A stretch of DNA of 64,000 nucleotides from Eledone cirrhosa (Eukaryota). The notes under the pieces were generated by a model. That model searched no databases. It worked only from the letters and a program-made list of their open reading frames with translations, and was not told the DNA's origin. The stretch is taken from positions 13,826,001 to 13,890,000 of the forward strand of contig OZ024754.1 in the NCBI GenBank assembly GCA_964016885.1, given 5' to 3'. The translations under genes and the position numbers were made by a program. This document shows positions 1,493 through 42,265 of the stretch, one piece after another; position 1 is the first letter of the stretch, and every line of letters begins with the position of its first letter.

Positions 1493-1585
1493 TTAGGCAG
1501 CAGCAATGACTATTATAACAATAACTGTCAGCACTGTAGTGAAGAACACATGGATAAAGAGGCAACATTTCTTGAATCGCCGACC
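1493..1585 (-). CDS. FRRS1: FRRS1-like last coding exon (C-terminal TM, stop)
   Basis: tatttccag|GRRFKKCCLFIHVFFTTVLTVIVIIVIAAA-TAA; resembles the GxxFKK+TM C-terminus of FRRS1. Confidence 0.88.
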   Translation of the reverse strand, partial: GRRFKKCCLFIHVFFTTVLTVIVIIVIAAA

Positions 1586-4500: not shown

Positions 4501-7500
4501 ATGTTACTGTTCACACCTATGTAGGGTTAGCTGGCCTCCAGTGAGGGTCATGTTACTGTTCACACCTGTGTAGGGTTAGCTGGCCTCCAGTGAGGGTCAT
4601 GTTACTGTTCACACCTGTGTAGGGTTAGCTGGCCTCCAGTGAGGGTCATGTTACTGTTCACACCTGTGTAGGGTTAGCTGGCTTCCAGTGAGGGTCATGT
4701 TACTGTTCACACCTGTGTAGGGTTAGCTGGCCTCCAGTGAGGGTCATGTTACTGTTCACACCTGTGTAGGGTTAGCTGGCCTCCAGTGAGGGTCATGTTA
4801 CTGTTCACACCTGTGTAGGGTTAGCTGGCCTCCAGTGAGGGTCATGTTACTGTTCACACCTGTGTAGGGTTAGCTGGTCTTCTATGTTGTTGTTATAGTT
4901 CATAACAGAGGTTCTCAAAGTGGGTGTTGTTACAGCTCACACCTTCGTAGGTTTAGTTGGCCTCCTATGTGATTACATCTCATTGGAGGTTTCTTAGGAG
5001 TATTAATGATAAAGACTGTCCCTTAGACTGGGGGCTAGTCCATTGCAGGAGTTACAGCTGCTGCTAATAGTCTATTATGATATATTTTATTTTATTTTAT
5101 TTTTTTTTATCTATATTTCATTTTATTCTATTATTATTTGGGGAGGGGGCTGAATGAACTTGAGCAATGCGAAATGAAGCATCTTGCTCAAGGATGGAGT
5201 GTGCCACCCAGTCAAGGAATGGTGAGTGGCATCTAACAACAACATAGGAGGTGTGTATATTTACAGCATGGTGACATCTAACAATTATAGAGAAGATATA
5301 TTTAGGAAGTGTACGTAGAAGTGTACGTAGGATGTATATAAAGGGTGTATATAAAGGGTGTATAAAGGGTGTATATACTTACAACAGGGTGTGGTTCTGG
5401 GATATACATCTTTGGATTCTCCCTCTTTGCATATTCATATTTTTCTCGTCGATCTGCAATAAAGGAAGCATCAGTGTCAATAGGTTGGTACCAGTGTCAG
5501 TTGGTTGGTACCAGTGTCAATAAGTTGGTACCAGTGTCAATAAGTTGGTACCAGTGTCAATAGGTTGGTACCAGTGTCAATAGGTTGGTACCAGTGTCAA
5601 TAGGTTGGTACCAGTGTCAATAAGTTGGTACCAGTGGCAATAGGTTGGTACCAGTGTCAATAAGTTAGTACCAGTGTCAATAAGTTGGTACCAGTGTCAA
5701 TAAGTTGGTACCAGTGTCAATAAGTTGGTACCAGTGTCAATAAGTTGGTACCATTGTCAATAGGTTGGTACCAGTGTCAATAAGTTGGTACCAGTGTCAA
5801 TAAGTTGGTACCAGTGTCAATAGGTTGGTACCAGTGTCAATAAGTTGGTACCAGTGTCAATAGGTTGGTACCAGTGTCAATAAGTTGGTACCAGTGTCAA
5901 TAAGTTGGTACCAGTGTCAATAAGTTGGTACCAGTGTCAATAGGTTGGTACCAGTGTCAATAAGTTGGTACCAGTGTCAATAAGTTGGTACCAGTGTCAA
6001 TAATTTGGTACCAATGTCAATAGGCTGGTAGCAGTGTCAATAAGTTGGTACCAGTGTCAATAAGTTGGTACCAGTGTCAATAGGTTGGTACCAGTGTCAA
6101 TAAGTTGGTACCAGTGTCAATAAGTTGGTACCAGTGTCAATAAGTTGGTACCAGTGTCAATAGGTTGGTACCAGTGTCAATAAGTTGGTGCCAGTGTCAA
6201 TAGGTTGGTACCAGTGTCAATAGGTTGGTACCAGTGTCAATAAGTTGGTACCAGTGCCAATAAGTTGGTACCAGTGTCAATAAGTTGGCACCAGTGTCAA
6301 TAGGTTGGTACCAGTGTCAATAAGTTGGTACCAGTGTCAATAAGTTGGTACCAGTGTCAATAGGTTGGTACCAGTGTCAATAAGTTGGTACCAGTGTCAA
6401 TAGGTTGGTACCAGTGTCAATAAGTTGGTAGCAGTGTCAATAAGTTGGTACCAGTGTCAATAAGTTGGTACCAGTGTCAATAAGTTGGTACCAGTGTCAA
6501 TAGGTTGGTACCAGTGTCAATAAGTTGGTACCAGTGCCAATAAGTTGGTTCCAGTGTCAATAGGTTGGTACCAGTATCAATAAGTTGGTACCAGTGTCAA
6601 TAGGTTGGTACCAGTGCCAATAAGTTGGTACCAGTGTCAATAAGTTGGTACCAGTGTCAATAGGTTGGTACCAGTGTCAATAGGTTGGTACCAGTGCCAA
6701 TAAGTTGGTACCAGTGCCAATAAGTTGGTACCAGTGTCAATAAGTTGGTACCAGTGTCAAGAAGTTGGTACCAGTGCCAATAGGTTGGTACCAGTGCCAA
6801 TAGGTTGGTACCAGTGTCAATAGGTTGGTACCAGTGTCAATAAGTTGGTACCAGTGTCAATAAGTTGGTACCAGTGTCAAGAAGTTGGTACCAGTGTCAA
6901 TAGGTTAGTACCAGTGTCAATAGGTTAGTACCAGTGTCAATAGGTTAGTACCAGTGTCAATAGGTTGGTACCAGTGTTAATAAGTTAGTACCAGTGCCAA
7001 TAGGTTAGTACCAGTGTCAATAGGTTGGTACCAGTGTTAATAAGTTAGTACCAGTGTCAATAGGTTGGTACCAGTGTTAATAAGTTAGTACCAGTGTCAA
7101 TAAGTTGGTATTGGTATCAGTCTCAATAAGTTAGTATCAACCACCAGTAGCCACAACTTGACAGCCATAGCAATGGAGTATGGAGTGTCGCTGTGATGTG
7201 TGTTCAGGAGATTGGCAGTTGAATAGGAGAAAGAGGAGGAGGAAATGTTAGCGAAACATCAAGAGAAAGGATCATAGAGGGAAACAGATAGATTGATAAA
7301 GAGAGAGACAGAGAGGGAAAGAGAGAGAGAAAACAAGAGAGAGAAACAGAGAGGGAAAGAGAGAGGGAAAACAAGAGAGAGAGATAAAGAGAGAGAGAGT
7401 GAGATAAAGAGAGAGAGAGAGAGAGGGAAAGAGAGAGGGAAAACAAGAGAGAGCAAGACAGAGAAATTTACCTTCATTTTTCTCATAGTAGCAGAAGTCA

Positions 7501-9512
7501 TGTATCTTGAGTAAAATATCAATAATAAGCTGGATTATCATGATAGCAACGAGGAACCATGTGATCCACCAAGGTATGTAGTATCTGCCATAGTCTAGAC
7601 TGATCAGTAAAGTTGGAACTAGAAGAAGCGAAGTGGAAACACCAATGACAGTCTTAGAAAAACAACAGAGATTTAAAACAACAAAATAATAAAAAAATAT
7701 ACATAAAAATTTGAAAATACACCCAGCACACTCTGTAAAGTGGTAGTGTTGGTGCAATGATAAGATGCACCCAGCACACTCTGTAAAGTAGTAGAGCTGG
7801 TGTCATGATAGAATACACCCAGTACACTCTGAAAAGTGGTAGTGTTGGTGCAATGATAAGATGCACCCAGCACACTCTGTAAAGTAGTAGTGTTGGTGCC
7901 ATGATAGAATACACCCAGCACACCCTGTAAAGTAGTAGTGTTGGTGCCATGATAAGATGCACCCAGTACACTCTGTAAAGTGGTAGTGTTGGTCCCATGA
8001 TTAAATGCACCCAGCACACTCTGTAAAGTAGTAGAGCTGGTGCCATGATAGAATGCACCCAGCACACCCTGTAAAGTAGTAGTGTTGGTGCCATGATTAG
8101 ATGCACCCAGCACACTCTGTAAAGTGGTAGTGTTGGTGATACCATGATTAAATACACCCAGCACACTCTGTAAAGTGGTAGAGCTGGTGCCATGATAGAA
8201 TGCACCCAGCACACCCTGTAAAGTAGTAGTGTTGGTGCTACCATGATTAAATACACCCAGCACACTCTGTAAAGTGGTAGTGTTGGTGCCATGATTAAAT
8301 GCACCCAGCACACTCTGTAAAGTGGTAGTGTTGGTGCCATGATAAAATACACCCAGTCCCCCTGTAAAGTGGTAGTGCAAGTGCCATGACAAAATACATA
8401 TGGTCCACTCTGTAAAATAGTAGTGCTGATGCCACAAGCTGTACTCAGTCCACTCGGTAAATTGGTAATATTGGCACCATAATGTGCATCAACTTCACCA
8501 AGTAACGTGGTAGTGATGTCCAGATAAAATACACCCAGTCCATTCTATAAAGTGGGAAGACAGGTGCCATGATAAAATGCACCCAGTCCACTCTGTAAAT
8601 TGTGATGAGGGCAGTAAATAAATGCTACAAAGTATTTTGTCTGACGCTCTACTGATTCTACCAATATGCAGCCCTGATTAAGTAAGTGCAATAAATCATA
8701 AGTTAGTAAGAAACAACAATAATAAATACAGGACAATAATTGTTTCTACTTTTGGCACAAGGCCAGCAATTATCCCAGTGCTTCATTTTATCGACCCCGT
8801 AAGGATGAGAGGCAAAGTTAACCTCGGCGTGATCTGAACTCAGGCTGTAAGGGGCCGTAACTCTATACGCCAAAGCATTGCGTCCGACCCTCCAGCAATA
8901 CTGCCAATCCACCACCCTTGCTGACCAATAAAGAACAATAATTGTTTCTACTTTTGGCACAAGACCAGCAATTACCCAGTACATTACTGGTACTTTATTT
9001 TATCGACCCCCGTATGGATGAAAGGCAAAGTTAACCTCGGCAGGATTTGAACTCAGACCGTAAAGGGACAGAACTAATCTGGAAAGCATGGCGTCCAACC
9101 CTCTACCGATACTGCCAATTCACTGCCATAAAGAACAATAATGAATACAGAACACAGAAGGCAGTAACTAAATGCCACAAAGCATTTCGTCCGACACTCT
9201 ACCGATTCTGCCAAGCCACGGCTCTGATTAAGTGATTGCAACAACAAACAATAATACTCACTGGCCAAAATGAGAGTGACCAAACAGAGAATAAAACAGA
9301 TGACGTTGAAGATAAACTGAAGGCATCCATCTGTACAGCGAATCAACAACATTATTATCGGCTGAAAGAGAAAAAACAATGGAAAGTCGTCGTCTAATAG
9401 AAAATTCTTTCATGGTTTTTATCTGCATGAGTGGCTTGAATGGTTCTTTTTGTTTTCTGTCTTATTTCTGGCTTTTTTATGTTTTATATTGTTTTATGTT
9501 ATTTTATCTCTA

Positions 9513-9586
<74 letters not shown>

Positions 9587-12500
9587 TATATATATATATA
9601 TATATATTTATTTATTTATATATATACATACATCATATATATATATATATTTATTTATTTATATATATATAAACATACATCATATACACATACACACATA
9701 TATATATACACACACACACACATACATATATATACATATATAGTGTTGTTGTTTTTTTTCATAAAACAGTGTAGCTAGATAAATAGTTGTAAAGAAATGG
9801 TATGGGTTAGATGAGCAGTCAGAGAGTAAACAGAATGGCTTAGATAAATACTTGTAGAAAAAAGAACCACAAATCCAATGGCATTGTTGTTGTTGTTGTT
9901 GCTGTTGTATATAAACAATTACAAATAAACAGTGTGGCTTAGATAAACAGTCGCAAAATAAATGATGCCGGCTTAGGGAAACAATCGCAAATAAAATAGT
10001 GGAGCTTCAGTGACCAATTTAGTAATGATAGAAAGAAGAGAACAAAAGAGAAGTGATTAATGGCTACAGAGAATTGGTAAAAGAAGATAGCCAAATGTCC
10101 AGAAAGTCTGATAATTTAGTGTAGGGTAGTGAAGGAAGGTTGAGGGGGTTTCAACATTGAAACATTTCTGGTAATGTAAACTACAAGATGTTAAACTAAC
10201 TGAATATAGTGAAGATTGATTGAGGTACGGGGTGAGGTTTGGCTGAGGTGTTGAGGTGTTGGGTGAGGTTTGTCTGAGTGTTGAGGTATTGGGTGAGGTT
10301 AGGCTGAGGTATTGGTGAGGTTAGACTGGGGTATTGGCTGAGGTTAGACTGGGGTATTGGGAGAGGTGAGACTGAGGTGCTGAGGTATTGGCTGAGGTGT
10401 TGACTCAGGTATTGGCTGAGGTATTGACAGATGTATTGGCTGAGGTATTGGCTGAGGTATTGACAGAGGTATTGGCTGAGGTATTGACTGAGGTTAGACT
10501 GAGGTATTGACTGAGGTTAGACTGAGGTATTGACTGAGGTATTGACTGAGGTTAGACTGAGGTATTGACTGAGGTTAGACTGAGGTATTGAGTGAGGTTA
10601 GACTGAGGTATTGACTGAGGTTAGACTGAGGTATTGATTGAGGTTAGACTGAGGTATTGGCTGCGGTTAAACTGAGGTATTGGCTGAGGTATTGGCTGAG
10701 GTTAGACTGAGGTATTGGCTGAGGTTAGACTGAGGTATTGATTGAGGTTAGACTGAGGTATTGGCTGAGGTTAGTTGAGGTATTGATTGAGGTTAGACTG
10801 AAGTATTGGCTGAGGTTAACTGAGGTATTGACTGAGGTATTGACTGAGGTATTGACTGAGGTTAGACTGAGGTATTGACTGAAGTTAGACTGAGGTATTG
10901 ACTGAGGTATTGACAGAGGTATTGACTGAGGTATTGACTGAGGTTACACTGAGGTTAGACTGAGGTATTGGGTGAGGTATTGACTGAGGTGTTGGGTGAG
11001 GTTAGACTGAGGTGTTGGGTGAGGTTAGACTGAGGTATTGGCTGAGGTTAGAATGAGGTTAGACTGAGGTATTGGCTGAGGTTAGACTGAGGTATTGGCT
11101 GAGGTAGGACTGAGATATTGGCTGAGGTAGGACTGAGGTTAGACTGAGGTGTTGGCTGAGGTTAGACTGAGGTATTGGCTGAGGTTAGACTGAGTGTTGA
11201 CTGAGGTTAGACTGAGGTTAAACTGAGGTTAAACTGAGGTGTTGGCTGAGGTTAGACTGAGTTATCGGGTGAGGTTTAGATGAGGTATTGGCTGAGGTTA
11301 GACTGAGGTATTGGCTAGGTTAGGTTAATGTATTGACTGAGGTTAGACTGAGGTATTGGCTGAGGTTAGACTGAGGTATTGGCTGAGGTATTGGCTGAGG
11401 TTAGACTGAGGTATTGGCTGAGGTTAGACTGAGGTGTTGACTGAGGTTAAACTGAGGTTAAACTGAGGTTAGACTGAGGTTAGACTGAGGTTAGACTGAG
11501 GTTAGACTGAGTTATCGGGTGAGGTTTAGATGAGGTATTGGCTGAGGTTAGACTGAGGTATTGGCTGAGGTTAGACTGAGGTATTGACTGAGGTGTTGGC
11601 TGAGGTTAGACTGAGGTATTGACTGAGGTTAGACTGAGGTATTGGTGAGGTTAGACTGAGGTATTGGCTGAGGTTACACTGAGGTATTGGGTGAGGTTAG
11701 ACTGAGGTATTGGCTGAGGTTAGACTGAGGTATTAGCTGAGGTTAGACTGAGGTATTGGGTGAGGTTAAACTGAGGTATTGGCTGAGGTTAGACTGAGCT
11801 ATTGGGTGAGGTTAGACTGAGGTATTGACTGAGGTTAGACTGAGGTATTGGGTGAGGTTAGACTGAGGTATTGGGTGAGGTTAGACTGAGGTATTGACTG
11901 AGGTTAGACTGAGGTATTGACTGAGGTTAAACTGAGGTTAGACTGAGCTATTGGGTGAGGTTAGACTGAGGTATTGACTGAGGTTAGACTGAGGTTAGAC
12001 TGAGGTGTTGGCTGAGGTTAGACTGAGGTATTGGGTGAGGTTAGACTGAGGTATTGACTGAGGTTAGACTGAGGTATTGGCTGAGGTTAGACTGAGGTGT
12101 TGGCTGAGGTAAGACTGAGGTATTGGCTGAGGTTAGACTGAGCTATTGGGTGAGGTTAGACTGAGGTATTGACTGAGGTATTGGCTGAGGTTAGACTGAG
12201 GTATTGGCTGAGGCTAGACTGAGGTATTGGCTGAGGTTAGACTGAGGTATTGGGTGAGGTTAGACTGAGGTATTGGGTGAGGTATTGGGTGAGGTTAGAC
12301 TGAGGTATTGGCTGAGGTTAGACTGAGGTTAGACTGAGGTTAGACTGAGGTATTGACTGAGGTATTGACTGAGGTAAGACTGAGGTTAGACTGAGGTTAG
12401 ACTATATTATAAATCATCATCATCATAATCATCATCATTTTACGTCCGCTCTTCCCTGCTTGCAAGAGGAATTTAAAAAAAAAAACAGAAGTACTTACAA

Positions 12501-14664
12501 TTATCAAGACACACACAAAGACAATAATCAGCATAATTGGATGAGCTTTGAGTGGTAGATAGGGAGCCTGCAAATATAGAGAAGTAGATGAACAAACATA
12601 TTAGAGAGAGAATACAAATATAGACAAATAATTGTTTTTACTTTTGGCACAAGGCCAGCAATTACCCCAGTGTATTACTGGTGCTTTATTTTATTGACCT
12701 CGTAAGGATGAAAGGTAAAGTTAACCTTGGCAGGATTTGAACTCAGAACGTAAAGGGCCGTAACTCTGTGCTGCAAAGCATGGTGTCTGATGCTCTACCA
12801 ATACTGCCAATCCACCGCCCTGATATAGACAAATAATTGTTTCTACTTTAGGCACAAGGCCAGCAATTACCCAGTGCATTACTGGTACTTTATTTTATCG
12901 ACCCCGTAAGGATGAAAGGCAAAGTTAACCTCGGCAGGATTTGAACTCAGACCGTAAAGGGACGTAACTGTGCTGGGAAGCAAGGCGTCCGACCCTCTAC
13001 CGATACTGCCAATTCACATCTGATATAGACAAATAATTATTTCTAGTATAGGCAGAAGGCCAGTAATCTGTGGGGAGGGGAAAGTCGATTAAATCAACCC
13101 CCAGTACGTTACTGGTGCATTATTTTACCGACCCCGCAAGAATGAAAAGCAAAGTTAACTGTAAAGGGCCATAACTCTATGCTGCAAAGCATGGCGTCTG
13201 ACGTTCTACTGATACTGCCAATCCACCACCCTTATATAGACAAATAATACTAAGGGTTTCTCATTTAGCACAAAACTAACAAAGTTGGTTTCTGATTTAG
13301 GCACAAGGCCAGCAATTTTAAGGGGTGCGGAGAAAGTCAATTAAACCAACCCCGCAGTACGTTACTGGTACTTTATTTTACCAACCTCGTAAAGGTAGAA
13401 AGTCAAAGCTGACCAGGACAGAATTTGAACTCAAAATGTAGAAAATTATAACTAAATACTGCAAAGCATTTGTTCTGATGCTCTACCGATTCTGTGCACT
13501 GTCCTCAATAATTATAATAATAAGGAGGAGGAGAAAACAACAAAGACTATACTACTCACATCTAAAAAGAAATGACATACAACACAAAGCTTTCAATTCA
13601 ATAGAACAACTAAAACAATACATATTCTTGAAAACTGCCTGTGTTCTGAGTTCAAATCCTGCCAAGGTCAATACTGCTTTTCATCCTTTCAAGGTATATA
13701 AAGTACCAGTCCTGTGCTGGGTTGGTTCTCTCTCGGCTGTGTTCTGACCTGGAGAGGAATGAACTCTACCAGGTTTAACCCTTTACCATTTACATTACTC
13801 TATATTTACTATTGTATTTTCACGGTAAACACTTTATCTCACATAATTATTTCACATAATATCAAATCTATGAGATTTTGGTATCATTTATTTTGAGAAC
13901 AATACTTTAACATCAGTATGAGGGGCTGGTTATAGTCGGTTTGAACAGAAAGAGGTCAGAGAATTCTGGCCGGACGTGGCCAGCTTAAATACCTAAAGGG
14001 TTAAAAATACCCACGACATACTGTGTGTCAGAGGGCGTCTCTATGACACCATCAGTAGTTAAGGGCCCTTTACAGTTTTATTCCATCATTGGAACTGAAC
14101 CATTACGACATGTCTTACCAAATAACTGTTGTAACTTCTATGACATGTCTTACCACATTATCATAAAGAATATGACAATATTAACAAAAAACAAGAGAGA
14201 TAAAAGATGTAGTAAAGACTTACTTCGACATATCCTCCAGCGTCCACAAAGAAAAGGATAAATGCGAGGATCATGAGGATAAACACTGACACCATACATG
14301 TCCAGTAGACCTAGAGATAGAGAGAGATAGAGAGAGAGAGAGAGATGAGGAACATTAGACATTGGTCGTGAAGGATAAAGATAACTAGGATGAAAACAAT
14401 AAAGAAAAATTAGATACATATATATGTGTGTGTGTGTATTATATATATATATATATATATATACATATTTATTAAAATAACAGATTAAAGTTTAAGCAAA
14501 GAATGGCTGCTTTCACCCTTAACGGGATCTTCTGAAACTTTCAGAAGATCTTAAACTTTAATCTGTTATTTTAATAAATATTTGCTCTACGGTTCTTATA
14601 TATTTGATATATATTTATCCTTATCGAGCCCTCTTTGGATTTTAGACTTCACATTTATTATTAT

Positions 14665-14706
<42 letters not shown>

Positions 14707-15033
14707 ATAATAATAAATGTGAAGACTAAAATCCAAAGAGGGCTCGATAAGGATAAATATATATCAAATATATAAGAACCATATATATATACATACATAT
14801 AAACAAAGAATTATACATATCTCTACACGAGTATAGATACAAGTACAGATCATATCTCTACATGAGTATAGATACATACACACATACATACATACAGAGT
14901 GTCCAACTTATACTGAGTTTGATTCTATGAAAGAGTTAATAAAATTAACAGATTCAGAGCCTAATAATATCAAATATGGAAAAAGGAAACAAGTTAAGAA
15001 AAAATCTTTACTTACTCACTTTAATGTCCCTAC

Positions 15034-15070
<37 letters not shown>

Positions 15071-18000
15071 AAGTATGACCCCGACGGCAGAGCTCAAGCC
15101 GTTTCAACGGCTATTTAATAAATATTTGCTCTATGGTTCTTATATATTTGATATATATTTATCCTTATTCACCAGGCTAAAAATTCTAATTTAGTCCAGA
15201 AATAGCCGTCGAAACAGCTTGAGCTCTGCCGTCGGGGTCATACTTTTTCTTATTTCCCCCTCTACTACCCTAAGTATTGAGTACTCTGGTGCGTTATGGT
15301 CCATCTGGTTCCTTGCCACAATTCCTTTGTTATATATATCATCATCATCATTTTTTACGTCCACTTTTCCCTGCTTGCAAGGGTGGGACGGGAACTGATA
15401 CTGGCTTGATTTCTACAGCTGGATGCCCTTCCTAACACCAACCTCATTTACAGTGAGTGCTGGGTGCTTTTTTTGCCGTGGCACCTCCATGACCACTTTG
15501 CAGTGGAATGATAGGGACACCAGTCCCTATCATCTCATTTCTACAGCTGAGTAAACTGGAGCAATGTGAAATAAAGTGTCTTGCTCAAGGAAACAACACA
15601 TCACCCGGTCCAAGAATTGAACTCACAACCTTTCGATTGCAAGGCCAATGCTCTAACCACTAAGCCATGTGCCTCCGATAAATTACATATTACGAGAAAT
15701 TAACGGAGCCATAGACTCTCGCTATTCCCTGTCATTAATGTGCTCAAAGGAGAAGGAATCCCGAGCCCTTTATAATACAATATGTAGAAAAGATAACACA
15801 CCAGAGAGAGAGACAGTGCGCCATCAGTCAAACAGGGAAAAACCACCAGTGTATGGAATCTATAACCCATGGAAGGCAGAGTAGACACACAATAATTAAA
15901 AGTATAAATCAAAGTGCAAATACGTACCTTGATAACTATCTAACACACACGTACAAATCCAACAGGATCTGTTTCACCAACTAATTTGTTGACGGAAATG
16001 ATTAGCCTATGGTTCATTAGCGTGTGTAAGGCTATACATTTCAGACAACACTAAAAGAATCTAAAGCGACCGTCCAGCCACACGTGGGAGAGAGAATTCA
16101 CAGCGTGCCTAGGGCAGCAACCAGTGGACTCTGAGGGACGAGCTGCTAGAAAGGGCAGCCCAAACCACTCTGTCAACAAATTAGTTGGTGAAACAAATCC
16201 TTTTGGATTTGTACGTGTGTGTTAGATAGTTATCAAGGTATGTGTTTGCACTTTGATTTATACTTTTAATTATCGTGTGTCTACTCTGCCTTCCATGGGT
16301 TATAGATTCCATACACTGGTGGTTTTTCCCTGTTTGACTGATGGCGCACTGTCTCTCACTCTGGTGTGTTATCTTTTCTACATATTGTATTATATATACA
16401 AGTTAGTTCCACAACAGTTAATAAAACATTTTAGAGAGAGTGCCTTTCACCTTGCGGATTTTCAACTTGAGTGAATGGGTTATAGCCAAAAAACAGAAGT
16501 CTATATGAAGAACATCAGTCATGCGCAAGTTCATCAACAAAGGGAACAACTCAAGTTAAACTGATGAAAAAGATACAATTGAGATCGTTCTGGATAAAAA
16601 TAGGTTGGGTCCATAGCAAATGAAATTAGTCTGGGTCCTTGTAGTTACACAATAAGTACTTGGATGTGTGAGGACATCGTTTATAGAAATCATACCTTAT
16701 ATTTAGACAGGTACTGTTACGTAATCTCTGTGGGATATTTATTCGTTCCTCAATGCATAGCCCACAAGACAAATTCCCATTTCCGTATGGCTTAGATTTG
16801 GTCAGAACTTTCCATTGAATGGTGTAATCCACGTCTGTTTTACGGCTATAACCGATTCACTCCACAAGGTGAAACGTGCGTCTTCGAAAATGGTTTATTA
16901 ACTGTTGTGGAACTAACTTCCGAACTTGTTCCATGGACTGAGTGCTCTACTACTACGGATATAACCTCCCAGTGTTCTACCTCTACTTTTTTTCCTAAAA
17001 TAAGTCTCAAAAATGTGTCATGGAGGCCGAAGGTTGTGTATTATTTTTTTTTCAAATTTTTGGTTGTCAAAATTAGGGGTCGTCCTCGAAGATGAAGCAT
17101 CTTCGGCGCTGGGAAATACGGTATATATTGAACAATGTGTGAGATCCTCGATATAGTTAGGTATATTTGAAAAAAAGAAAAGAATGACTTCGCTTGTAGT
17201 TGGTATTCTATAAGAATTTAATTTTATAATTTTGCTTTGTAGATCTAATAAGTCCTTTGTTAACTTCCGCACTTGTCCTACTCGCCAGATTTAGCTCCTG
17301 CGGACTTCTTCCTTTTCCTGAAGATGAAAATCAAGCTCAAAGATCACCATTTTAACACTGTTGCAGAGATCCAGCACAAATCGCAAAAGGTTCTTGACAA
17401 GCTTACAAAACTTGACTTCAAGGCCGCACAACAGGAGTGGCAGAAATGCAAGGAGACTTGCTTAAAGGAGATCATGTTTAAACTTATGTAAATAAAGTAA
17501 TTTTTTAAATAAAGAGCTAGTCTGGAAACTTTTTGACTTTCCCTCGCATATCATTTTTTTCCTGAAAGATTTGATGTCAAAATCTGTCTTATTCACCGAT
17601 GATGTTGACAATTTAGAACAACTACAGAGAATTATGGCAAGAAATGTACATCAAGGGAGTTTATTCTATTAAAAACAAATAAAGTTATTTCCCTTGTAAA
17701 TGGCAACAGGTAAATTATAGATTGTTAATACATTTCCTCCACCCCTCTTCTTTCTTGTTACAGTAAACTACTGGCTCTGATTGATTGACAAGATCCTAGA
17801 CTTTGTTTGTTTGCTGAGTGGCGTGGACCTCGTCAAATCAGCAGAAAGAGGAACGTGAAATAAAATGTCTTGCTCAAGGACACAACACATCACCCGGTCT
17901 GAGAATTGAACTCGCAACTTCACGATTGCGAATCCAACTCTCTAACCACTAAGCTACGCACCTTCACATTATACTACAGTCTGCTTAATCAGAGTTAACC

Positions 18001-21000
18001 TAAGGTTAAACACCAACAGTATACCTGGGACACAAACTAGTAATCTCCCCATTTTGTGAATCAAGACAAGTATTGTACAGCCTCCACACCACCACCATTT
18101 TATCAAAGATGCCCTAACCATCTCCACACCACCGCCATTTTATCAAAGATGCCCTAACCATCTCGACACTACCGCCATTTTATCAAAGATGCCCTAACTA
18201 TCTCCACACCACCACCATTTTATCAAAGATGCCCTAACCATCTCCACACCACCACCATTTTATCAAAGATGCCCTAACCATCTCCACACCACCACCATTT
18301 TATCAAAGATGCCCTAACCATCTCCACACCACCCCCATTTTATCAAAGATGCCCTAACCATCTTGTCTTTATATTCCGACAGAGTGGATCCTACCCAACA
18401 TTATCCAAATGCATTTGGATAGGAAATAAAGAAATTTTGACTGTTATTTCTAGCTCATTGGGCAGTTATATTAAGGTTTCCTTCCTGGTTGAAATAGGGA
18501 TCTCTGATTTAGGCAAAAGACCAATTATTTTTAGGGGAGGAGAAAGTCAATTAAACTGAACCTAGTGCATTACTGGTACTTTATTTTATCGACCCCGTAA
18601 GGATGAAAAGCAAAGCTAACTTCGGCGGGATTTGAACACCGAACGTAAAGGGCCATAACTCTATGTTGCAATGCATGGTGTCTGACACTCTATAATAGTC
18701 AATTAAATCAACCCCAGTGCATTACTGATACTTTATTTTATCGACCCCGTAAGGATGAAAAGCAAAGCTAACTTCGGCGGGATTTGAAATCAGAAGGTAA
18801 TGGGACGTAACTCTATGCAGGGTGCCCGATGCTCTACTGATACTGCCAATCTACTACCCTCTGGTGAAATAATGGTAGTTATTTAATGGTTTGACAAGCT
18901 GACAACATTCAAATCAACAGCAAAGTGAATGGTTGTTGAAACAAAATCATCATTATCATTTAAAGTTCATTTTTCCTACTAGCAAGGGTTGGACAGACCA
19001 AATAAGTACTTAGCCAGACCCCTTCACCTCTCAGAGAGGTATGGGTGGGGGGATCCATACATCCCTGTTCTCTACAGAGGGTACTGAATATGCTTTTATC
19101 ATGGCACCAGGACTAGACAGGTTATCATGTCTTTAACACAAGTGAAAAGAAAGAGAAGAGTAAAATACTTACAACAAACCAGTATCTTTTGTCAAGGAAG
19201 CGACTGTTGGGCCACATTCTCTTGTAGTACATTGACATTAGGCAACCAATAGGAGCACAGAAGATCCAGGCCAAAATCATCAAAATTACTGAAAAATTAG
19301 AAGATTTCATTGAAAGATTACAGTGAAATTCCATTATAAAATAAAATTTGTTGTAATGAAAAATTCTTTATAACGAGATCGACCGAAGCAAATCGAAAGT
19401 GTGGCCGGGGAATAAAAAATATTTTGTTATACTGAAAAATTAGTTATAATGGTATAACGGAATTTTACCTGTATATGAAATAATATTTTTGTGAGTGTAA
19501 ATGAATGATAATATATAATTGTTTCTAGCATAGACACAAGGTCAGTAATTTTGTGGGGGTGCTATTGGGATGAAGGAGTCAATTAAATTAACCCCAGTAC
19601 TTTACAGGTACTTTATTTTATCAACCCAGGAAGAATGAAAGGCAAAGATGACTTTGGCAATATTTGAACTCGGTCATTACACTATATTCAAGATATATTA
19701 CTAAATAGAAAAATAGTACAAGCAATAAATGAAGGCATAATACAGCCACTATATAAATACATTACACTATATTAAGACATAGTACTATCAATACAGCCAC
19801 TATATAAAGATATTATAGTGTCATTACACTATATTAAGACATAGTACTATCAATACAGCCACTATATAAAGATATTATAGTGTCATTACACTATATTAAG
19901 ACATAGTACTATCAATATAGCCACTATATAAAGATATAGTGTCATTACACTATATTAAGACATAGTACTATCAATACAGCCACTATATAAAGATATTATA
20001 GTGTCATTACACTATATTAAGACATAGTACTATCAATATAGCCACTATATAAAGATATAGTGTCATTACACTATATTAAGACATAGTACTATAGATATAT
20101 TTCCTATATAAAGATATTATAGTGTCATTACACTATATTAGCAGAAAGACAACCCTTCGGGTGGTTTTCTGCTAGCATGTGTAGTGTGCATATTGATATT
20201 ATACGCAAATATATATGCATGTAGATATGATCATCATCATTTTACGTCCGCTTTTCCCTGCTTGCAAGGGTGGGACGGGTCTTATTCAGCACAGCATCTC
20301 TCCACTTGTCACGGTCCTTTGTCATCTACACTGTGAGCTTCAGCAATCTGAGGTCTGTTCTCACCACCTCCGCCCATGTTTTTCGTGGTCTACCTCTACC
20401 ACGTCTTCCTTCAACTGGCATTTCCTGGCACTTCTTCACCCATCAGTCATCCTCCATGCGCATCACATGTCCATACCACCTCAGTCTCCTCTTTCTCACA
20501 CTACATTCTATCCCTCTCAGACACAGTTTCTCTCTCAACAGATCCACGCTCGGTCGTTAATGCACATTGACATCGCACATCCAACGGAGCATGCTTGCCT
20601 TTCTCTCCAGCTGTCGCATATACTCTGCAGTTGCTGCACTACCATGCAGCATCATGCTCCTCACACAGGCATCAGATAACCAGCCTTTCATACGCAGGGA
20701 GAAACCCTTCTTCGTCAAATATGTCAAATAAAATCATAATTGACAATTTGCACAGAAATTAAACAAAGTCTGTGTTACACTCTCTTCTGTAATCAGTAAA
20801 GTAATTCATGATACATTAAAAAAAAGACGATATTATATATAAACTGCATATATGATAAACTAAAATGTTATGAAAATGAAAAAGGAGAAAATTAGCGACA
20901 GAAATATAAACTTTATATAACGATGCAAATATATGAACGTTTATATAAGTGATGTGATAAGTGTTAGTTATGATATAAGGGACGCTAACTGGAAGTATTG

Positions 21001-24000
21001 ACATTTGAAAATTTTAAAGAAGTGAATGTTAAAATAAGCAATACTTTATATATAAGAATATTTATGTTTAATGAAGGGATTTGAAATTTAGTAGATAAAT
21101 TACATAATATTCATTCATTATTTATTCAAAGTAATCCAACTTATTTTACTAACGGGATAAAATAAATATAAAATGGACGCCGTCCCGCACTCCCCCTTTT
21201 ATTATATTATAGATTTAAGACGTGCTATGAATACATTCACTATATAAAGACATTACATAGTCATTACACTAAGACATAATACTATCAATACAGCCACTAT
21301 ATAAAGATATAGTGTCATTACACTATATTAAGACATAGTACTATCAATACAGCCACTATATAAAGATATAGTGTCATTACACTATATTAAGACATAGTAC
21401 TATCAATATAGCCACTATATAAAGATATAGTGTCATTACACTATATTAAGACATAGTACTATCAATACAGCCACTATATAAAGATATTATAGTGTCATTA
21501 CACTATATTAAGACATAGTACTATCAATACAGCCACTATATAAAGATATAGTGTCATTACACTATATTAAGACATAGTACTATCAATATAGCCACTATAT
21601 AAAGATATTATAGTGTCATTACACTATATTAAGACATAGTACTATCAATACAGCCACTATATAAAGATATTATAGTGTCATTACACTATATTAAGACATA
21701 GTACTATCAATATAGCCACTATATAAAGATATTATAGTGTCATTACACTATATTAAGACATAGTACTATCAATATAGCCACTATATAAAGATATAGTGTC
21801 ATTACACTATATTAAGACATAGTACTATCAATACAGCCACTATATAAAGATATAGTGTCATTACACTATATTAAGACATAGTACTATCAATACAGCCACT
21901 ATATAAAGATATAGTGCCATTACACTATATTAAGACATAGTACTATCAATATAGCCACTATATAAAGATATAGTGCCATTACACTATATTAAGACATAGT
22001 ACTATCAATACAGCCACTATATAAAGATATTATAGTGTCATTACACTATATTAAGACATAGTACTATCAATATAGCCACTATATAAAGATATTATAGTGT
22101 CATTACACTATATTAAGACAGTACTATCAATACAGCCACTATATAAAGATATTATAGTGTCATTACACTATATTAAGACATAGTACTATCAATATAGCCA
22201 CTATATAAAGATATTATAGTGTTTAGTATATAGGTAGAACATAATGAGGCAAAAACCATTGGAAAAAATGTAAGGGAAATAGAAAGACCATATCAAGACA
22301 GTGTGATCAAGAGATGGTAAAAATGTGACTACTTACCATGGGCTTTAGCAACTGGGTACCTTGAAATACCAGAGATGTCTTCTGTCTCACTCATGTCCAC
22401 TTCTTCTACTGATACTATTGGTACACGGCCAATACCAAGACCATGGATTGTTTTCTTACCTGGAATTTAAGAAGAAAGAGTCAACCAAACCATTACAGCT
22501 ATCATTACCACCTCAAACCTTAACCTCCACTCAACACCTCATGAAACCTTAAGCTCCATCCAACACCACATGAAAGCTCAACATACCATTCCAACCTCGA
22601 CCTCCATTCAACACCACATGAAACCTTAATCTCGACTCAACACCAGATGAAAGCTCAACTTAACATCCCAAGCTCAACCTCCAATCAATACCACATGAAA
22701 GCTCAACTTAACCATCCCAAGCTAAACCTGCACTCAACACCACATGAAAGCTCAACTTAACCATCTCAAGCTAAACCTCCACTCAACTCACCATCCGATG
22801 CTTTACCTCCTCTCTACACCACATGAAAGCTCAACTTAACCATCCCAAACTCAACCTCCATCCAACACCACATGAAAGCTCAACTTACCATCCCAAGCTA
22901 AACCTCCACCCAACACCACATGAAAGCTCAACTTACCATCCCAAGCTAAACCTCCACCCAACACCACATGAAAGCTCAACTTACCATCCCAAGCTTTGCC
23001 TCCACCCATCACCACATAAAAGCTCAACTTACCATCCCAAGCTTTACCTCCACCCAACACCACATGAAAGCTCAACTTACCATCCCAAGCTTTACCTCCA
23101 CCCAACACCACATGAAAGCTCAACTTACCATCCCAAGCTTTACCTCCACTCAACACCACAGGAAAGCTCAACTTACCATCCCAAGCTTTGCCTCCACCCA
23201 ACACCACATGAAAGCTCAACTTACCATCCCAAGCTTTGCCTCCACCCAACACCACATGAAAGCTCAACTTACCATCCCAAGCTTTGCCTCCACCTAACAC
23301 CACATGAAAGCTCAACTTACCATCCCAAGCTTTGCCTCCACCCAACACCACATGAAAGCTCAACTTACCATCCCAAGCTTTGCCTCCACCCAACACCACA
23401 TGAAAGCTCAACTTACCATCCCAAGCTTTGCCTCCACCCAACACCACATGAAAGCTCAACTTACCATCCCAAGCTTTGCCTCCACCCAACACCACATGAA
23501 AGCTCAACTTACCATCCCAAGCTTTGCCTCCACCCAACACCACATGAAAGCTCAACTTACCATCCCAAGCTTTGCCTCCACCCAACACCACATGAAAGCT
23601 CAACTTACCATCCCAAGCTTTGCCTCCACCCAACACCACATGAAAGCTCAACTTACCATCCCAAGCTTTGCCTCCACTCAACACCACATGAAAGCTCAAC
23701 TTACCATCCCAAGCTTTGCCTCCACTCAACACCACATGAAAGCTCAACTTACCATCCCAAGCTTTGCCTCCACCCAACACCACATGAAAGCTCAACTTAC
23801 CATCCCAAGCTTTGCCTCCACCCAACACCACATGAAAGCTCAACTTACCATCCCAACTTTGCCTCCACCCAACACCACATGAAAGCTCAACTTACCATCC
23901 CAAGCTTTGCCTCCACCCAACACCACATGAAAGCTCAACTTACCATCCCAAGCTTTGCCTCCACCCAACACCACATGCCATTTGCCTTCCTTCAACATAA

Positions 24001-27000
24001 AGTCATGTTGGTTGCCAGCACTTTTGTGGACCCGGAATCGGCATCGCAGGCGGTTGTTGTAGTGGGAACCAGTCTCATAGACTATTCCTTTCTTGGGCTG
24101 AGGGAAAGTGAGAGAAAAGAGAGAAGATGAAACAGAGGTGTGAGATAGGCTGTGATAGAGGAGTGGGAGAGAAGGAAGTAAGAGAGAGAAGAGTGGGAGA
24201 GAGGGAAGTAAGAGAGTGCAGAGTGGGAGAGAGGGAAGTAAGAGAGAGGGGAGTGGGAGAGAGGGAAGTAAGAGAGAGGGGAGAGAGGGAAGTAAGAGAG
24301 AGGGGAGTGGGAGAGAAGGAAGTAAGAGAGAGAAGAGTGGGAGAGAAGGAAGTAAGAGAGAGAAGAGTGGGAGAGAAGGAAGTAAGAGAGAGAAGAGTGG
24401 GAGAGAGGGAAGTAAGAGAGAGAAGAGTGGGAGAGAGGGAAGTAAGAGAGAGGGGAGTGGGAGAGAGGGAAGTAAGAGAGAGGGGAGTGGGAGAGAGGGA
24501 AGTAAGAGAGAGGGGAGAGAGGGAAGTAAGAGAGAGGGGAGTGGGAGAGAGGGAAGTAAGAGAGAGAGGAGTGGGAGGGAGGGAAGAGAGAGGAGTGGGA
24601 GAGAGGGAAGAGAGAGAGGAGTGGGAGAGAGGGAAGAGAGAGAGGAGTGGGAGGGAGGGAAGAGAGAGAGGAGTGGGAGAGAGAGGAGTGGGAGAGAGAG
24701 GAGTGGGAGGGAGGGAAGAGAGAGAGGAGTGGGAGAGAGGGAAGAGAGAGAGGAGTGGGAGAGAGGGAAGTAAGAGAGAGAGGAGAGGGAGAGTGAGGTA
24801 TCAGAGAGAGGGAGAGGATGAGAGCGAGGTGAGAGGGAGAGAGGGTGATATAAGAGAGAGGAGAGGAAAGGAAAGAGAATGAGGTATGAGAGGAAAGAGA
24901 GAGAGAGAGAGAGAGAATATGAGAGAGAAAGGATAGACATATAGGCAAGAGAAGAAGAGAGAGAAAATATGGAACAGAGGTAGGAGAAAGAGAATAAAGG
25001 GTGACTGGACAGACAGACAGACAGAAAGCCAGACAGACAGACAGACAGACAGACAGAAAGCTAGAGAGACAGACAGAGAGAAAGGCAGTGAGACAGACAG
25101 AAAGCTAGACAGACAGGGAGACAGGTAGATAACCAGACAGACAGTGAGTGAGTGAGTGAGTGAGAGAGAGAGTTGTACCTACCTCTGATAACTCAACAAT
25201 ATCATTCACTCCTCTAATGTAGGAGAGTGACACAGACACTATTCCATGTTTGAAATCTTCAATACAGTCAAAAGCATAGTCATCACCCTGGACAGAAATA
25301 TAGAAATATAATGGGATTAGATGTGTGTAAAGTAGTTAGTAGTAAATAATAGATATAATGGGATTAGATGTATGTAAAGTAGTTAGTAGTAAATAATAGA
25401 TATAATGGGATTAGATAAATGTAAAGTAGTTAGTAGTAAATAATAGATATAATGGGATTAGATGTATGTAAAGTAGTTAGTAGTAAATAATAGATATAAT
25501 GGGATTAGATGTGTGTAAAGTAGTTAGTAGTAAATAATAGATATAATGGGATTAGATAAATGTAAAGTAGTTAGTAGTAAATAATAGATATAATGGGATT
25601 AGATGTATGTAAAGTAGTTAGTAGTAAATAATAGATATAATGAGATTAGATGTATGTAAAGTAGTTAGTAGTAAATAATAGATATAATGAGATTAGATAT
25701 ATATAAAGTAGTTAGTAGTAAATAATAGATATAATGGGATTAGATATATGTAAAGTAGTTAGTAGTAAATAATAGATATAATGGGATTAGATATATGTAA
25801 AGTAGTTAGTAGTAAATAATAGATATAATGAGATTAGATATATATAAAGTAGTTAGTAGTAAATAATAGATATAATGAGATTAGATATATGTAAAGTAGT
25901 TAGTAGTAAATAATAGATATAATGAGATTAGATGTATGTAAAGTAGTTAGTAGTACATAATAGATATAATGGGATTAGATGTATGTAAAGTAGTTAGTAG
26001 TAAATAATAGATATAATGGGATTAGATATATGTAAAGTAGTTAGTAGTAAATAATAGATATAATGAGATTAGATGTATGTAAAGTAATTAGTAGTAAATA
26101 ATAGATATAATGGGATTAGATATATGTAAAGTAGTTAGTAGTAAATAATAGATATAATGGGATTAGATATATATAAAGTAGTTAGTAGTAAATAATAGAT
26201 ATGAGATTAGATATATGTAAAATAGTTAGTAGTAAATAATAGATATAATGAGATTAGATGTATGTAAAGTAATTAGTAGTAAATAATAGATATAATGGGA
26301 TTAGATATATGTAAAGTAGTTAGTAGTAAATAATAGATATAATGGGATTAGATATATGTAAAGTAGTTAGTAGTAAATAATAGATATAATGAGATTAGAT
26401 ATATATAAAGTAGTTAGTAGTAAATAATAGATATAATGAGATTAGATATATGTAAAGTAGTTAGTAGTAAATAATAGATATAATGAGATTAGATGTATGT
26501 AAAGTAGTTAGTAGTACATAATAGATATAATGGGATTAGATGTATGTAAAGTAGTTAGTAGTAAATAATAGATATAATGGGATTAGATATATGTAAAGTA
26601 GTTAGTAGTAAATAATAGATATAATGAGATTAGATGTATGTAAAGTAATTAGTAGTAAATAATAGATATAATGGGATTAGATATATGTAAAGTAGTTAGT
26701 AGTAAATAATAGATATAATGGGATTAGATATATATAAAGTAGTTAGTAGTAAATAATAGATATGAGATTAGATATATGTAAAATAGTTAGTAGTAAATAA
26801 TAGATATAATGAGATTAGATATATGTAAAGTAGTTAGTAGTAAATAATAGATATAATGAGATTAGATGTATGTAAAATAGTTAGTAGTACATAATAGATA
26901 TAATGGGATTAGATGTATGTAAAGTAGTTAGTAGTAAATAATAGATATAATGAGATTAGATATATATAAAGTAGTTAGTAGTAAATAATAGATATAATGG

Positions 27001-32700: not shown

Positions 32701-35700
32701 TGCTTTTTGCTGTGTCTTTTACATGTCCACTTTAAGAATATAGTAGAGGAAAGAAGATGATAGGAGATTTAGCAGAGAACTAGAAAATAAAGGAAAAGAG
32801 GAAGGTGTAACAAGCTGGACATGTTAAACAGTATGTAGAAACATTGACCTGAAGTAAACAACTGTTGAAGTATTCACCTACCTCATAAGTATCATCTGAC
32901 AGAGCAAATGTCATCCAGACATTATGGATCAAACCAGTAGCCATACTCATCTCTACCTCCACAACATTGTCAATGGACTTCCATGTAACAATATACTTGC
33001 AGTTCAATTCCCAGCATCCTACTGGCTCCCGGTAGCAACCCCTTGTCTTACCACAGTCAGCTGTGTTAATCTGTTTGGTTAAGGGCACAATATTCTGAAA
33101 CAGATCAAAAATTGGGGGAGGTCAACCCCACCAAATAATCAGTGAAATAAATATATTAATTTGACAGATGTGTAAATACATTTAATTATCATCATCGTTT
33201 TACATCTGTTTTTACATCTGTTTTTACATGCTGACGTGGTTTGGATGGAAATTTTAATTCTGGTGGCGCTCACCACTCTCCAGGATTGAACACAGCTGAT
33301 TTCTTCCAGAGAAGGAAGGAGACAGACAGAGAGAGAGAGAGAGAGAGAGAGGAAGTGAGAAAGAGATATAGGGGGAGAATAGACCCCCAGTACTTGACTG
33401 GTACTTTATTTATTGACCTCCAAAAGATGAAAGGCAGGATTTGAAAGCCAATTCACCGTCTTACAGAGTGTAGTGGCTGTATCTTATCATGGCATCAGCA
33501 CCAAAGAGGTTGTCATGTCCTTCGTTATTAGTTTCTCTATTCAACTCTCGCTAAAGCATCACTTTGCCTTTCATGTTTCTAAGGGATTGATTAAATAAGT
33601 ACTAACAAAAAACTAGAGCCAATTCAGTCATCCACAATTCTTCCTGAAAATCTGGACTATTATTAGTGGTAAAACTACTGAAGAAGGAAAATAACAGGAT
33701 CGTCATGGCTGGACTTCTTTTGACCATATTTCTCCTTTATTCAGGCTGATCTGGAGCTAGACAACAACAAACAGGTTGTATGAAAACAAATAAAATAAAA
33801 CTATACCAAGTTAATCAGAAGAAATAAAGTTACTTACTTCTTGAGGTACTGGAGGCATAGGCAGTCCTTTAGTGTAGTCAATAACTGTTGCTGACCGTTC
33901 TCGAACCCAGAATGTTTTGAAGTTTTTAGAAACGGTAAAGCTACACAATAGATAGACAAAATTCATATAGAAAAAAAAAAAAAATCAACATTCATTTAAT
34001 TGCTTGATTTTAAAGTATTATGACATTAAAATGCTTTGTCTATATTGTCCAAAAATTACATTCAACTCATCTTATTGGAGTTATCTTCCCTCGCTTGTTT
34101 TTAGATTTTAAAACATTCCGAGAAGGGGTTTTTTTTTTTAGTAAATGATTTGATAAACTTAGTCAATAAAAGTTTCTTAACTCACTATATTACATATGTT
34201 AGACTCTACTCTATCTCTATTTAATATATAGCACTAAGCCCACCCTGTATGCTAATCCAGTACCACAACATGCTGGTGACACAACAAAAAGCACCCAGTA
34301 AGGTGGTTGTGCTGGTAACATGACAAAAAGCACCGTCTACTCTGTAAGGTGGTCGTATTGGTGACAAAATAGAAAGCACCCAGTCCACACTGTAACGTGG
34401 TTGGCATTAGGAAGAATATCAAGCTATAGAAACCACGCCAAAATACAGATCTGTATGGGCATAGCGTGGTCTCCAGACCTGACTTGTCTCATAACAGGAC
34501 AACCTGTCTAACCCATGTAAATGTGGAAAATGAACATTAAATGATGATGATGATGATGATGATGACGACAAATTGGCAGAGTCAGAGCGTTAGATTAACC
34601 CTTTAGTATTTAAACCGGCCAGAATTCACTCACCTCTATCTCTTCAAAACAGCCGTAGCCGGCCACTTATACTGATGTTAAAGTATTGTTCTCAAAATAA
34701 ATAATATCAAAATCTCATACATTTGATATTATGTGAGATAATTATGTGAAGTAAAGCCTTTACTGTAAAAATACAATAGTATATATAGAGTAATGTAAAT
34801 GCTAAAGGGTTAAAAATGCTTCACTAAATTTGTTTCAGCTCATTGCATTCTGAGTTCAAATCCCAATGAGGTCAACTTTGCCTTTCGTCCTTTCGAGGTT
34901 GATTCTAATACAGGGATTGAATGTTCTTCCTATCCCTCTTTCTTTCAATGGATGAGCTCCAACAGGTTTAAAAAGCCCAAGACATGCTAAATATCATGAT
35001 GGCGCCTCTAAAACTCTATCAACATCATTTTTATGGCCATTTTCCATGCTAACATGGGTTGGACGGGCAGGTTTGAGTCAATGCTTTACAGCTGGATACC
35101 ATTCCTGACTCCAACCCATTTAGTCATTTCTTAAGATATGCAGGGATACAGTATGCCCATTCTAAACCCCTGTCAAGGTAAAAAGTCGCAGTACTTACAG
35201 AAAATAGATATGCCCTACATATTGCTTCACTCTCCAAAAAAATGAAATATTGGATAGGGGTTCATTGTTGACTTTGACATAACCAGCCTGAAATAGAAAG
35301 ACCAGCTAATGATAGGACCATGAAATAGCTACCCTGAAATAGAAAGACCAGCAAATGACAAGACTTTGACATAGCTGCTCTGAAATAGAACGACCAGTAA
35401 ATAATGGGATGTATTGAAAATAATAAAAAGCTACTTACACCAGCTGCTTCTTTGCAATTTGGGATCATGACTTGTCGCTCACCACCCAAGAATGTACCTT
35501 GAGGCCCATTATCATTACCGGATAGTTTCCTCGCTTGAATCTGGAAGTCTTGAAATTCACTGCCATCTGTAGACATCACAGTCACTGAAAAAATAATGGT
35601 TATATTTATATTAGTGGACCAGTTCCGTCTATAATAACATTAGCATCAATTTTTTGGGTCCAGGACTTGCATGTCATATATACCAGGACTAGAGTACCAT

Positions 35701-42114: not shown

Positions 42115-42116
42115 AT

Positions 42117-42163
<47 letters not shown>

Positions 42164-42265
42164 TATATATATGTACCCGCTCACAAACACACACACATAC
42201 AAATATGCATACGTATATACACACACACACAGAAACACATACAACCGCACATACAGATACATATA

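Follow-up and report, generated by a model that had tools for sequence, protein, structure and literature searches.

A cephalopod FRRS1-type cytochrome b561 protein that has lost three heme ligands and is probably a pseudo-reductase

In the 64,000-nucleotide window analysed here (positions 13,826,001 to 13,890,000 of Eledone cirrhosa contig OZ024754.1), the minus strand carries a gene of 15 coding exons, running from 37371 to 1493, which by descent and architecture (Reeler, DOMON, six-helix b561 body) is an FRRS1-type CYBDOM. Three of the six residues that hold the hemes of the FRRS1 family are replaced in this octopod gene: histidine 2 of the membrane domain by Tyr412, histidine 4 by Cys484 and the DOMON heme methionine by Glu244. 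The relay proposed for CYBDOM proteins leads from ascorbate to the inner heme, the outer heme, the DOMON heme and finally Fe3+. We consider it probable that the octopod protein is a conserved, likely expressed pseudo-reductase, which would hold at most one heme and act as a membrane-anchored binding protein.

The exon model, built with the proteins of octopod relatives as guides, comprises 1797 nucleotides and 598 amino acids with a single terminal stop, and GT and AG bound all 14 introns. A sequence-only reading of this DNA had proposed four heme-ligand motifs, and all four are found on the minus strand where it placed them. His1 is His371 (CAT, 22340-22338) in coding exon 8 (22337..22459). 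The His2 site is Tyr412 (TAC, 14307-14305) in exon 10 (14224..14310), which encodes the second transmembrane helix (TM2); the WFVVY motif leading up to it straddles the exon 9/10 junction, WFV on one side and VY on the other. His3 is His448 (CAT, 12543-12541) in exon 11 (12499..12567, TM3), and the His4 site is Cys484 (TGT, 9298-9296) in exon 12 (9262..9361, cytosolic loop and TM4). To these assignments we added an alignment: 187 proteins were gathered, 177 yielded a DOMON-plus-membrane segment, and with the Eledone protein these made 178 rows, which fell to 157 once 21 near-duplicates were collapsed (146 rows that keep His4, called keepers below, and 11 that have lost it, called losers). Tyr412 and Cys484 do fall in the His2 and His4 columns of the 178-row alignment, in which 146 rows have all four histidines. 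Thus, at the four positions where a functional b561 has histidine, the Eledone protein reads H, Y, H, C. The pairing given in the sequence-only reading, with His1 and His3 on the outer heme and His2 and His4 on the cytosolic one, agrees with PMC10691727 and PMC10784544.

Adenosine-to-inosine editing is unable to yield His from TAC or TGT under the genetic code, as had been pointed out. A tblastn search of the window with the membrane domains of eight relatives showed no alternative His-bearing exon among the matches listed; 610 of its 671 matches lay off the gene model, and the best of them among the matches listed was low-complexity (E 0.056). We also considered His535 and His580 as substitute ligands and rejected them: both are present in intact orthologues too, and they are expected on TM5 and TM6, outside the four-helix core.

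The change at the cytosolic heme goes beyond its two ligands. We scored 15 hallmark positions of the b561 pockets, 7 inner and 8 outer, counted from the heme histidines (H4+4 lies four residues after His4); ten are named in PMC10691727, and the other five (H4-7, H1+1, H1+4, H1+8, H3+1) were picked from column conservation and known b561 structure. The Solemya and Lottia orthologues keep 7/7 inner and 8/8 outer hallmarks, and Eledone, O. sinensis and Argonauta keep 0/7 inner and 6/8 outer (Fisher p 0.007, with positions that are not independent). All five residues that position the cytosolic heme or serve ascorbate are replaced in Eledone: H1+20, which is Arg/Lys in 143 of 146 keepers, is Met391; H3+14, Asn/Gln in 145/145 keepers and in 1/11 losers, is Ile462; H3+18, a small residue (Ala/Ser/Gly) in 143/145 keepers, is Met466; H4+4, Gly/Ala in 146/146 keepers and 0/11 losers, is Cys488; and the ascorbate arginine at H4-7, invariant in the 146 keepers, is Gln477. 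The summed volume of the small inner sites is 272 in Eledone, against a family median of 149 and a maximum of 178. The claim that the cytosolic heme site is gone is therefore borne out at both ligands and at five further inner-pocket residues, and the pocket appears to have been rebuilt rather than given new ligands.

This rebuilding makes it unlikely that Tyr412 and Cys484 ligate the cytosolic heme in place of two histidines, an option that the sequence-only reading had raised. Other proteins do use Tyr or Cys to bind heme, and all six octopod sequences share both residues; however, 81% of the core is invariant among octopods anyway. Moreover, the residue that replaces His4 varies across the 11 losers (Tyr in 5 rows, Cys in 3, Phe in 2, Leu in 1), the Sepia state is Phe, which is incapable of ligation, and the propionate-binding Arg/Lys and the small Gly/Ala residues that accommodate the heme have become Met, Met and Cys, with Ile462 a fourth such change. 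We regard Tyr/Cys ligation as very unlikely.

A second heme site would be broken as well, so that the protein can hardly be called otherwise intact, as it had been. The DOMON heme methionine lies in an SxDxxMGxD motif and is a predicted heme ligand (PMC10691727); the corresponding pair in the CYBDOM HYP1 is M90/H174 (PMC10784544), and the Met/His pair is reported as universally conserved in the CYBDOMs examined in PMC10691727. In Eledone the methionine position is taken by Glu244, encoded by GAG (32884-32882), the final codon of exon 5 (32882..33094, first half of DOMON), which lies outside the interval 9262..22459 given in the sequence-only reading. A heme-binding DOMON uses Met and His as axial ligands; here the former has become Glu244 and the latter is kept as His336 (22445-22443, exon 8). 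The methionine is retained by 142 of 143 keepers. It is Glu in 21/21 coleoid sequences, and the partner histidine is invariant in the same 21. Judged by these residues, the DOMON heme site appears to be broken throughout the coleoid proteins sampled.

The same residues could instead mean that the DOMON heme site was turned into a non-heme metal site, formed by Glu244, His336, Asp241, Asp247 and Ser239 and binding or sensing Fe, Cu or Zn on the surface of the cell. Glu244 and His336 are both invariant in the 21 coleoid sequences, and Ser239, Asp241 and Asp247, which belong to the proposed iron-binding pocket of CG8399/SDR2 (PMC10691727), are kept. Yet the coleoid sampling covers just two lineages, with 57% identity between their DOMON domains, so that one retained Glu is weak evidence, and P0052, a protein that lost its ligands independently, has Pro at the methionine position. 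We hold such a metal site to be improbable.

The outer pocket gives a more ambiguous picture. His371, His448, Met375, Trp379, Pro449 and Ser502 are kept; His1 is retained in 11/11 losers and His3 in 10/11, and both are invariant in the 21 coleoid sequences. Two small residues of the outer pocket are bulky in octopods: Val372 (H1+1, Gly/Ala in the family), whose codon is split across the exon 8/9 junction, and Leu452 at H3+4, a position that is Gly in 145/146 keepers and a predicted heme contact (PMC10691727). The summed volume of three small outer sites reaches 396 in Eledone, against a family median of 180 and a maximum of 322. The sole non-octopod row at 396 is P0167, in which His3 is lost in the alignment and a His stands one residue earlier; the other non-coleoid losers do not exceed 209. 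Whether the octopod protein would carry one outer heme or none is, on these residues, about an even call.

These changes are shared and appear to be maintained. The same Tyr and Cys occur in O. sinensis, O. vulgaris (two proteins), O. bimaculoides and Argonauta hians, hence in all six octopod sequences, and the Eledone protein is placed among the octopods on the tree (support 100/100), where it differs from the protein of every named species. Four named octopod species with the same state argue against chance or assembly error. Across four octopods, invariant positions make up 113/140 of the b561 core (81%), 135/160 of DOMON (84%) and 64/131 of the Reeler (49%), and core identity among octopods is 84-94%; the domains with lost ligands thus seem still to be under constraint. 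The Reeler (exons 1-4, 33838-37371) diverges fastest, with 62-70% identity to Eledone compared with 84-95% for the other octopod domains.

The gene is also likely expressed. A 2227-nucleotide contig of sequencing run X4 matches 19171-19289 (exon 9) without differences, and the limits of the match, one base beyond the acceptor and two beyond the donor, are those expected of spliced mRNA; in length the remainder of the contig would accommodate the other coding exons together with untranslated regions of about 220 and 210 nucleotides, and the depth over exon 10 agrees with this contig (46.3 seen, 45.7 expected). In the cluster that contains Sepia pharaonis, of which 15 of 24 members were used, full-length proteins lie on contigs of at most 3 kb, some of them on dozens of contigs, which would make these contigs spliced transcripts if the Sepia gene is built like that of Eledone.

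All this bears on the possibility that the gene is decaying or that it reflects faulty annotation or assembly. Such an account could draw on the long coleoid stem branch (1.03 changes per column), on the position of the His2 codon outside the DNA contigs listed and on the b561 domain of Pfam, which is no longer detected in octopods (PF03188 gave no match in 3/3 octopod proteins). Against it stand the open 598-residue frame with its 14 canonical introns, the state shared by four named species with a conserved core, the spliced-looking X4 contig and the full-length Sepia proteins on short contigs. We consider decay or artefact largely refuted and the least likely of the explanations weighed here; the sequence-only reading was right that this loss is not random decay.

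Where that reading needs correction is in treating the loss of exactly one histidine pair as a single clean event. In the 15 proteins of the Sepia cluster His2 is still present and His4 has become Phe, and the gastropod and Solemya orthologues keep all ligands. Over the 157 rows, His2 is lost in 4/11 losers and in 0/146 keepers; three of these four are octopods, which makes two His2-loss events. These patterns show a stepwise loss, in which His4 and the DOMON methionine went on the coleoid stem and His2 later, in octopods. Parsimony on a 24-row tree, made without the ligand and pocket columns, counts three changes for His4 and two each for His2 and the DOMON methionine, and P0053 and P0167, absent from that tree, are two more apparent losses on a 164-row FastTree. 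The approximately unbiased (AU) test, run under LG+G4 on 15 rows with 14 ligand and pocket columns removed and with groups defined once the FastTree had been seen, rejects one common origin for all His4 losses (p 0.00014 for 8 rows and p 0.00023 for the 7 rows in the mollusc clade). A shared His4 loss in coleoids and the Sinanodonta clade is compatible with this test (p 0.42), as is bivalve monophyly (p 0.28). His4 thus appears to have been lost independently at least three times in the family.

The pocket changes recur with it: H4+4 is changed in 11/11 losers and H3+14 in 10/11. In the Sinanodonta clade (P0040, P0054, P0011), His4 is Tyr and the Gly is Trp, the ascorbate Arg and 8/8 outer hallmarks are kept, and the DOMON methionine is present in the two full-length proteins; on these features its members are the best candidates for a working one-heme b561. 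Outside the mollusc clade, P0052 (DOMON Met to Pro, His2 to Tyr, His4 to Leu) seems to have reached nearly the octopod state independently. Further independent ligand losses are seen in P0041 (DOMON His and His4), P0167 (DOMON Met and His, His3 and His4) and P0053 (His4).

A broader reading of this recurrence would be that one FRRS1 branch has repeatedly evolved a natural single-heme b561, with an aromatic relay in bivalves and a DOMON metal site in coleoids. Several lineages would have removed His4 independently, rebuilt the cytosolic pocket alike and kept the outer His pair. The bivalve form, with Tyr and Trp at the inner heme site and with the ascorbate Arg and both other hemes kept, may conduct through such a relay; single-heme transmembrane transfer would then have been invented a second time, after STEAP. 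In coleoids the Glu/His/Asp site would make the protein a sensor of redox state or metals at the cell surface, with the conserved cytosolic helix passing on the signal. We think this scenario unlikely.

The identity of the protein itself is drawn from several lines. The Reeler is recognised by PF02014 in the O. sinensis orthologue (E 2e-17) and matches the F-spondin reeler structurally (Z 13.8); DOMON is recognised by PF03351 in the same orthologue (E 1e-6, just under the curated cut-off), with structural matches to dopamine beta-hydroxylase (Z 12.0) and to the cytochrome domain of cellobiose dehydrogenase (CDH; Z 10.9). After DOMON comes a b561-type membrane domain, whose core is 46-52% identical to three orthologues that pass PF03188. 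A sequence search of solved structures gave the Spondin-1 reeler as its sole match, and the best Atlas cluster for the gene is 'ferric-chelate reductase 1' (score 0.96). For folding we used the O. sinensis orthologue as a stand-in, which is 93% identical to the Eledone gene in the b561 core. The predicted model (mean predicted local distance difference test, pLDDT, 89.5 for the whole and 95.1 for the membrane domain) has six helices long enough to span the membrane and one more that follows TM5, and among 48,161 chains the top two structural matches of its membrane domain are cytochrome b561 4O6Y (Z 12.1, root-mean-square deviation 3.3, 158 residues aligned) and Dcytb 5ZLG (Z 12.0, deviation 3.0, 163 aligned). 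The b561 fold is thus predicted to be retained in the octopod protein.

To explain these observations we propose that, with the inner heme, the ascorbate site and the DOMON heme lost, the three-heme relay would be cut at both ends. Electrons from cytosolic ascorbate would then likely no longer cross the membrane through the protein, and no transmembrane ferric reduction would be expected of it. Its six-helix anchor would display the Reeler and a DOMON free of heme on the outer side and the conserved charged helix on the inner side, and the likely part of His371 and His448 would be to bind a single outer heme, or a metal, as a structural element. Because the protein is still conserved despite its lost ligands, a non-catalytic role is the most likely, and the likeliest one remaining would be that of a membrane-anchored binding or assembly protein. 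The charged helix, conserved in intact and broken orthologues, would explain why the relay could be dropped repeatedly. Two experimental systems are consistent with this: an Arabidopsis b561 double mutant in H83/H156 kept only the low-potential heme (PMC10005133), and the CYBDOM HYP1 without one His pair, the outer one, gave no transmembrane current (PMC10784544). The pseudo-reductase unable to conduct electrons, which the sequence-only reading had also suggested, is the best reading of the gene.

Several points weigh against it. Run X4 carries no library label, and its splice joints fall outside the rows listed. The Z values of about 12 lie under the structural tool's own caution level for helical bundles (about 13), and Foldseek gave no b561 match at E 0.001 with either the whole model or the membrane domain. 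The fold assignment therefore leans on sequence alignment to intact orthologues, and what we say of the octopod pockets would likewise stand or fall with the sequence. The cytosolic face retains Trp408, Phe409, Phe480, Asn481 and several basic residues. A binding or assembly role is reached by elimination, and the partner is hypothetical. Finally, the STEAP proteins have lost the cytosolic His pair and yet still transfer electrons (PMC6194020).

This last point leads to the possibility that a single heme suffices for electron transfer through the octopod protein, as in STEAP and YedZ, with a flavin, a quinol or an aromatic relay in place of the cytosolic heme. In STEAP1-4 and YedZ, too, the His pair on the cytoplasmic side is gone and the outer heme remains (PMC6194020, PMC3591440), and in STEAP the site became a flavin site (PMC6194020). 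In the coleoid sequences His1 and His3 are invariant (21/21), the inner face of the octopod protein is lined by the aromatics Trp408, Phe409, Tyr412, Trp413 and Phe480, and STEAP4 is among the weaker fold matches of its membrane domain (Z 9.8). However, STEAP and YedZ are of another superfamily, conducting and FAD-binding (FAD, flavin adenine dinucleotide), with conserved Arg and Gln at the lost histidines (PMC3591440), whereas the octopod gene has Tyr and Cys there and its pocket looks filled. Met391 and Gln477 stand where the pocket Arg/Lys and the ascorbate Arg belong, the summed volume at the small inner sites is above the family maximum, as given above, the acceptor heme in DOMON would be broken, and Pfam found no nucleotide-binding domain. 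A STEAP-like mechanism would suit the Sinanodonta clade, with its outer pocket at 8/8 and DOMON methionine kept where sequenced, better than octopods, for which we judge it rather unlikely.

Known relatives help to place the pseudo-reductase that we favour. FRRS1/SDR2 and Drosophila CG8399, compared through the position numbering of PMC10691727, have the same domain order; the Eledone gene keeps His1, His3, the DOMON His and the DOMON Ser/Asp loop, and differs at His2 and His4, at the methionine of DOMON, at the arginine for ascorbate and at four more positions of the inner pocket, all of which are replaced. The intact mollusc orthologues (Solemya KAL5016941, Lottia XP_009045726, Littorina, Pomacea, Babylonia, Batillaria) form one clade with the Eledone gene (100/100) and share its charged TM5-TM6 insert and, in the three compared, the 46-52% core identity given above; unlike it, they keep all six ligands, and Solemya and Lottia also all 15 pocket hallmarks. 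The Arabidopsis CYB561B1 H83/H156 mutant is laboratory-made with an otherwise native pocket (PMC10005133), whereas the octopod protein is natural and its outer pocket is changed too. Drosophila CG6479 is a b561-domain protein reported to be without the conserved histidines and was dropped from the survey in PMC10691727. No description of the octopod variant was found in the open-access literature, subscription journals being outside this coverage, nor was a paper found there that joins 'pseudoenzyme' to 'cytochrome b561'. FRRS1L, a DOMON protein with a ferric-reductase name, is known for a role in AMPA-receptor handling and not in reduction; it is not known to have a b561 or Reeler domain, and the octopod gene has both.

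The remaining exons complete the gene, all on the minus strand. Exon 1 (37191..37371) holds the start codon, a hydrophobic N-terminal segment that is likely a signal peptide and the beginning of the Reeler, which continues through exons 2 (35439..35584) and 3 (35199..35287) and ends in exon 4 (33838..33940) with a Pro-rich linker. Exons 6 (25183..25287) and 7 (23944..24097) encode DOMON, exon 9 (19173..19288) TM1 and a cytosolic loop with Val372 and Met391, exon 13 (7472..7618) TM5 with His535 and Cys538, exon 14 (5383..5453) the charged helix and a Pro-rich stretch between TM5 and TM6, predicted to be cytosolic and conserved in the mollusc orthologue group, and exon 15 (1493..1585) TM6 with His580 and the stop codon. 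His535, Cys538 and His580 flank the charged helix (exons 13-15), and intact and broken members of the mollusc orthologue clade alike conserve them; the region is a possible cytosolic metal, lipidation or partner site. In exon 12, octopods gained Cys471, Cys475, Cys484 and Cys488 around the TM3-TM4 cytosolic loop, possible palmitoylation sites that bring to mind the Cys-rich loop found in insect Nemy (PMC10691727).

An acceptor-like sequence just before the start codon (37372-37390) suggests that an untranslated first exon probably lies further upstream; arithmetic on the X4 contig implies a 5' untranslated region of about 220 nucleotides. Intron 7 contains a 48-bp tandem array (22782-23977, 24.9 copies, 97% matches), whose first unit is made of the final 34 nucleotides of exon 7 and its splice donor. 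The array holds 23 exact donor copies including the true one; since the second unit measures 47 bp, just one extra copy out of 22 is in frame, and correct splicing must pass over some 20 identical downstream donors. The translation of an open reading frame at 41585-42280 (minus strand) resembles the C-terminal end of a LINE (long interspersed nuclear element) reverse transcriptase, and a similar fragment lies near 20260-20720 in intron 8.

Databases name the orthologues 'putative ferric-chelate reductase 1', and for the cephalopod proteins this label is probably wrong. The finding is mainly of interest to specialists, and the function of the octopod protein is read from its sequence. The four histidines are what a cytochrome b561 is usually defined by, and a His-less member was left out of a survey (PMC10691727). 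Molluscs would offer a natural ordered series away from that state: intact proteins in Solemya and gastropods, no inner heme in the Sinanodonta clade, neither inner nor DOMON heme in the Sepia cluster and, as the last stage, both inner histidines gone and the outer pocket crowded in octopods. The series would permit direct tests of which hemes a CYBDOM needs, of whether a one-heme b561 can conduct and of a non-redox job for the family.

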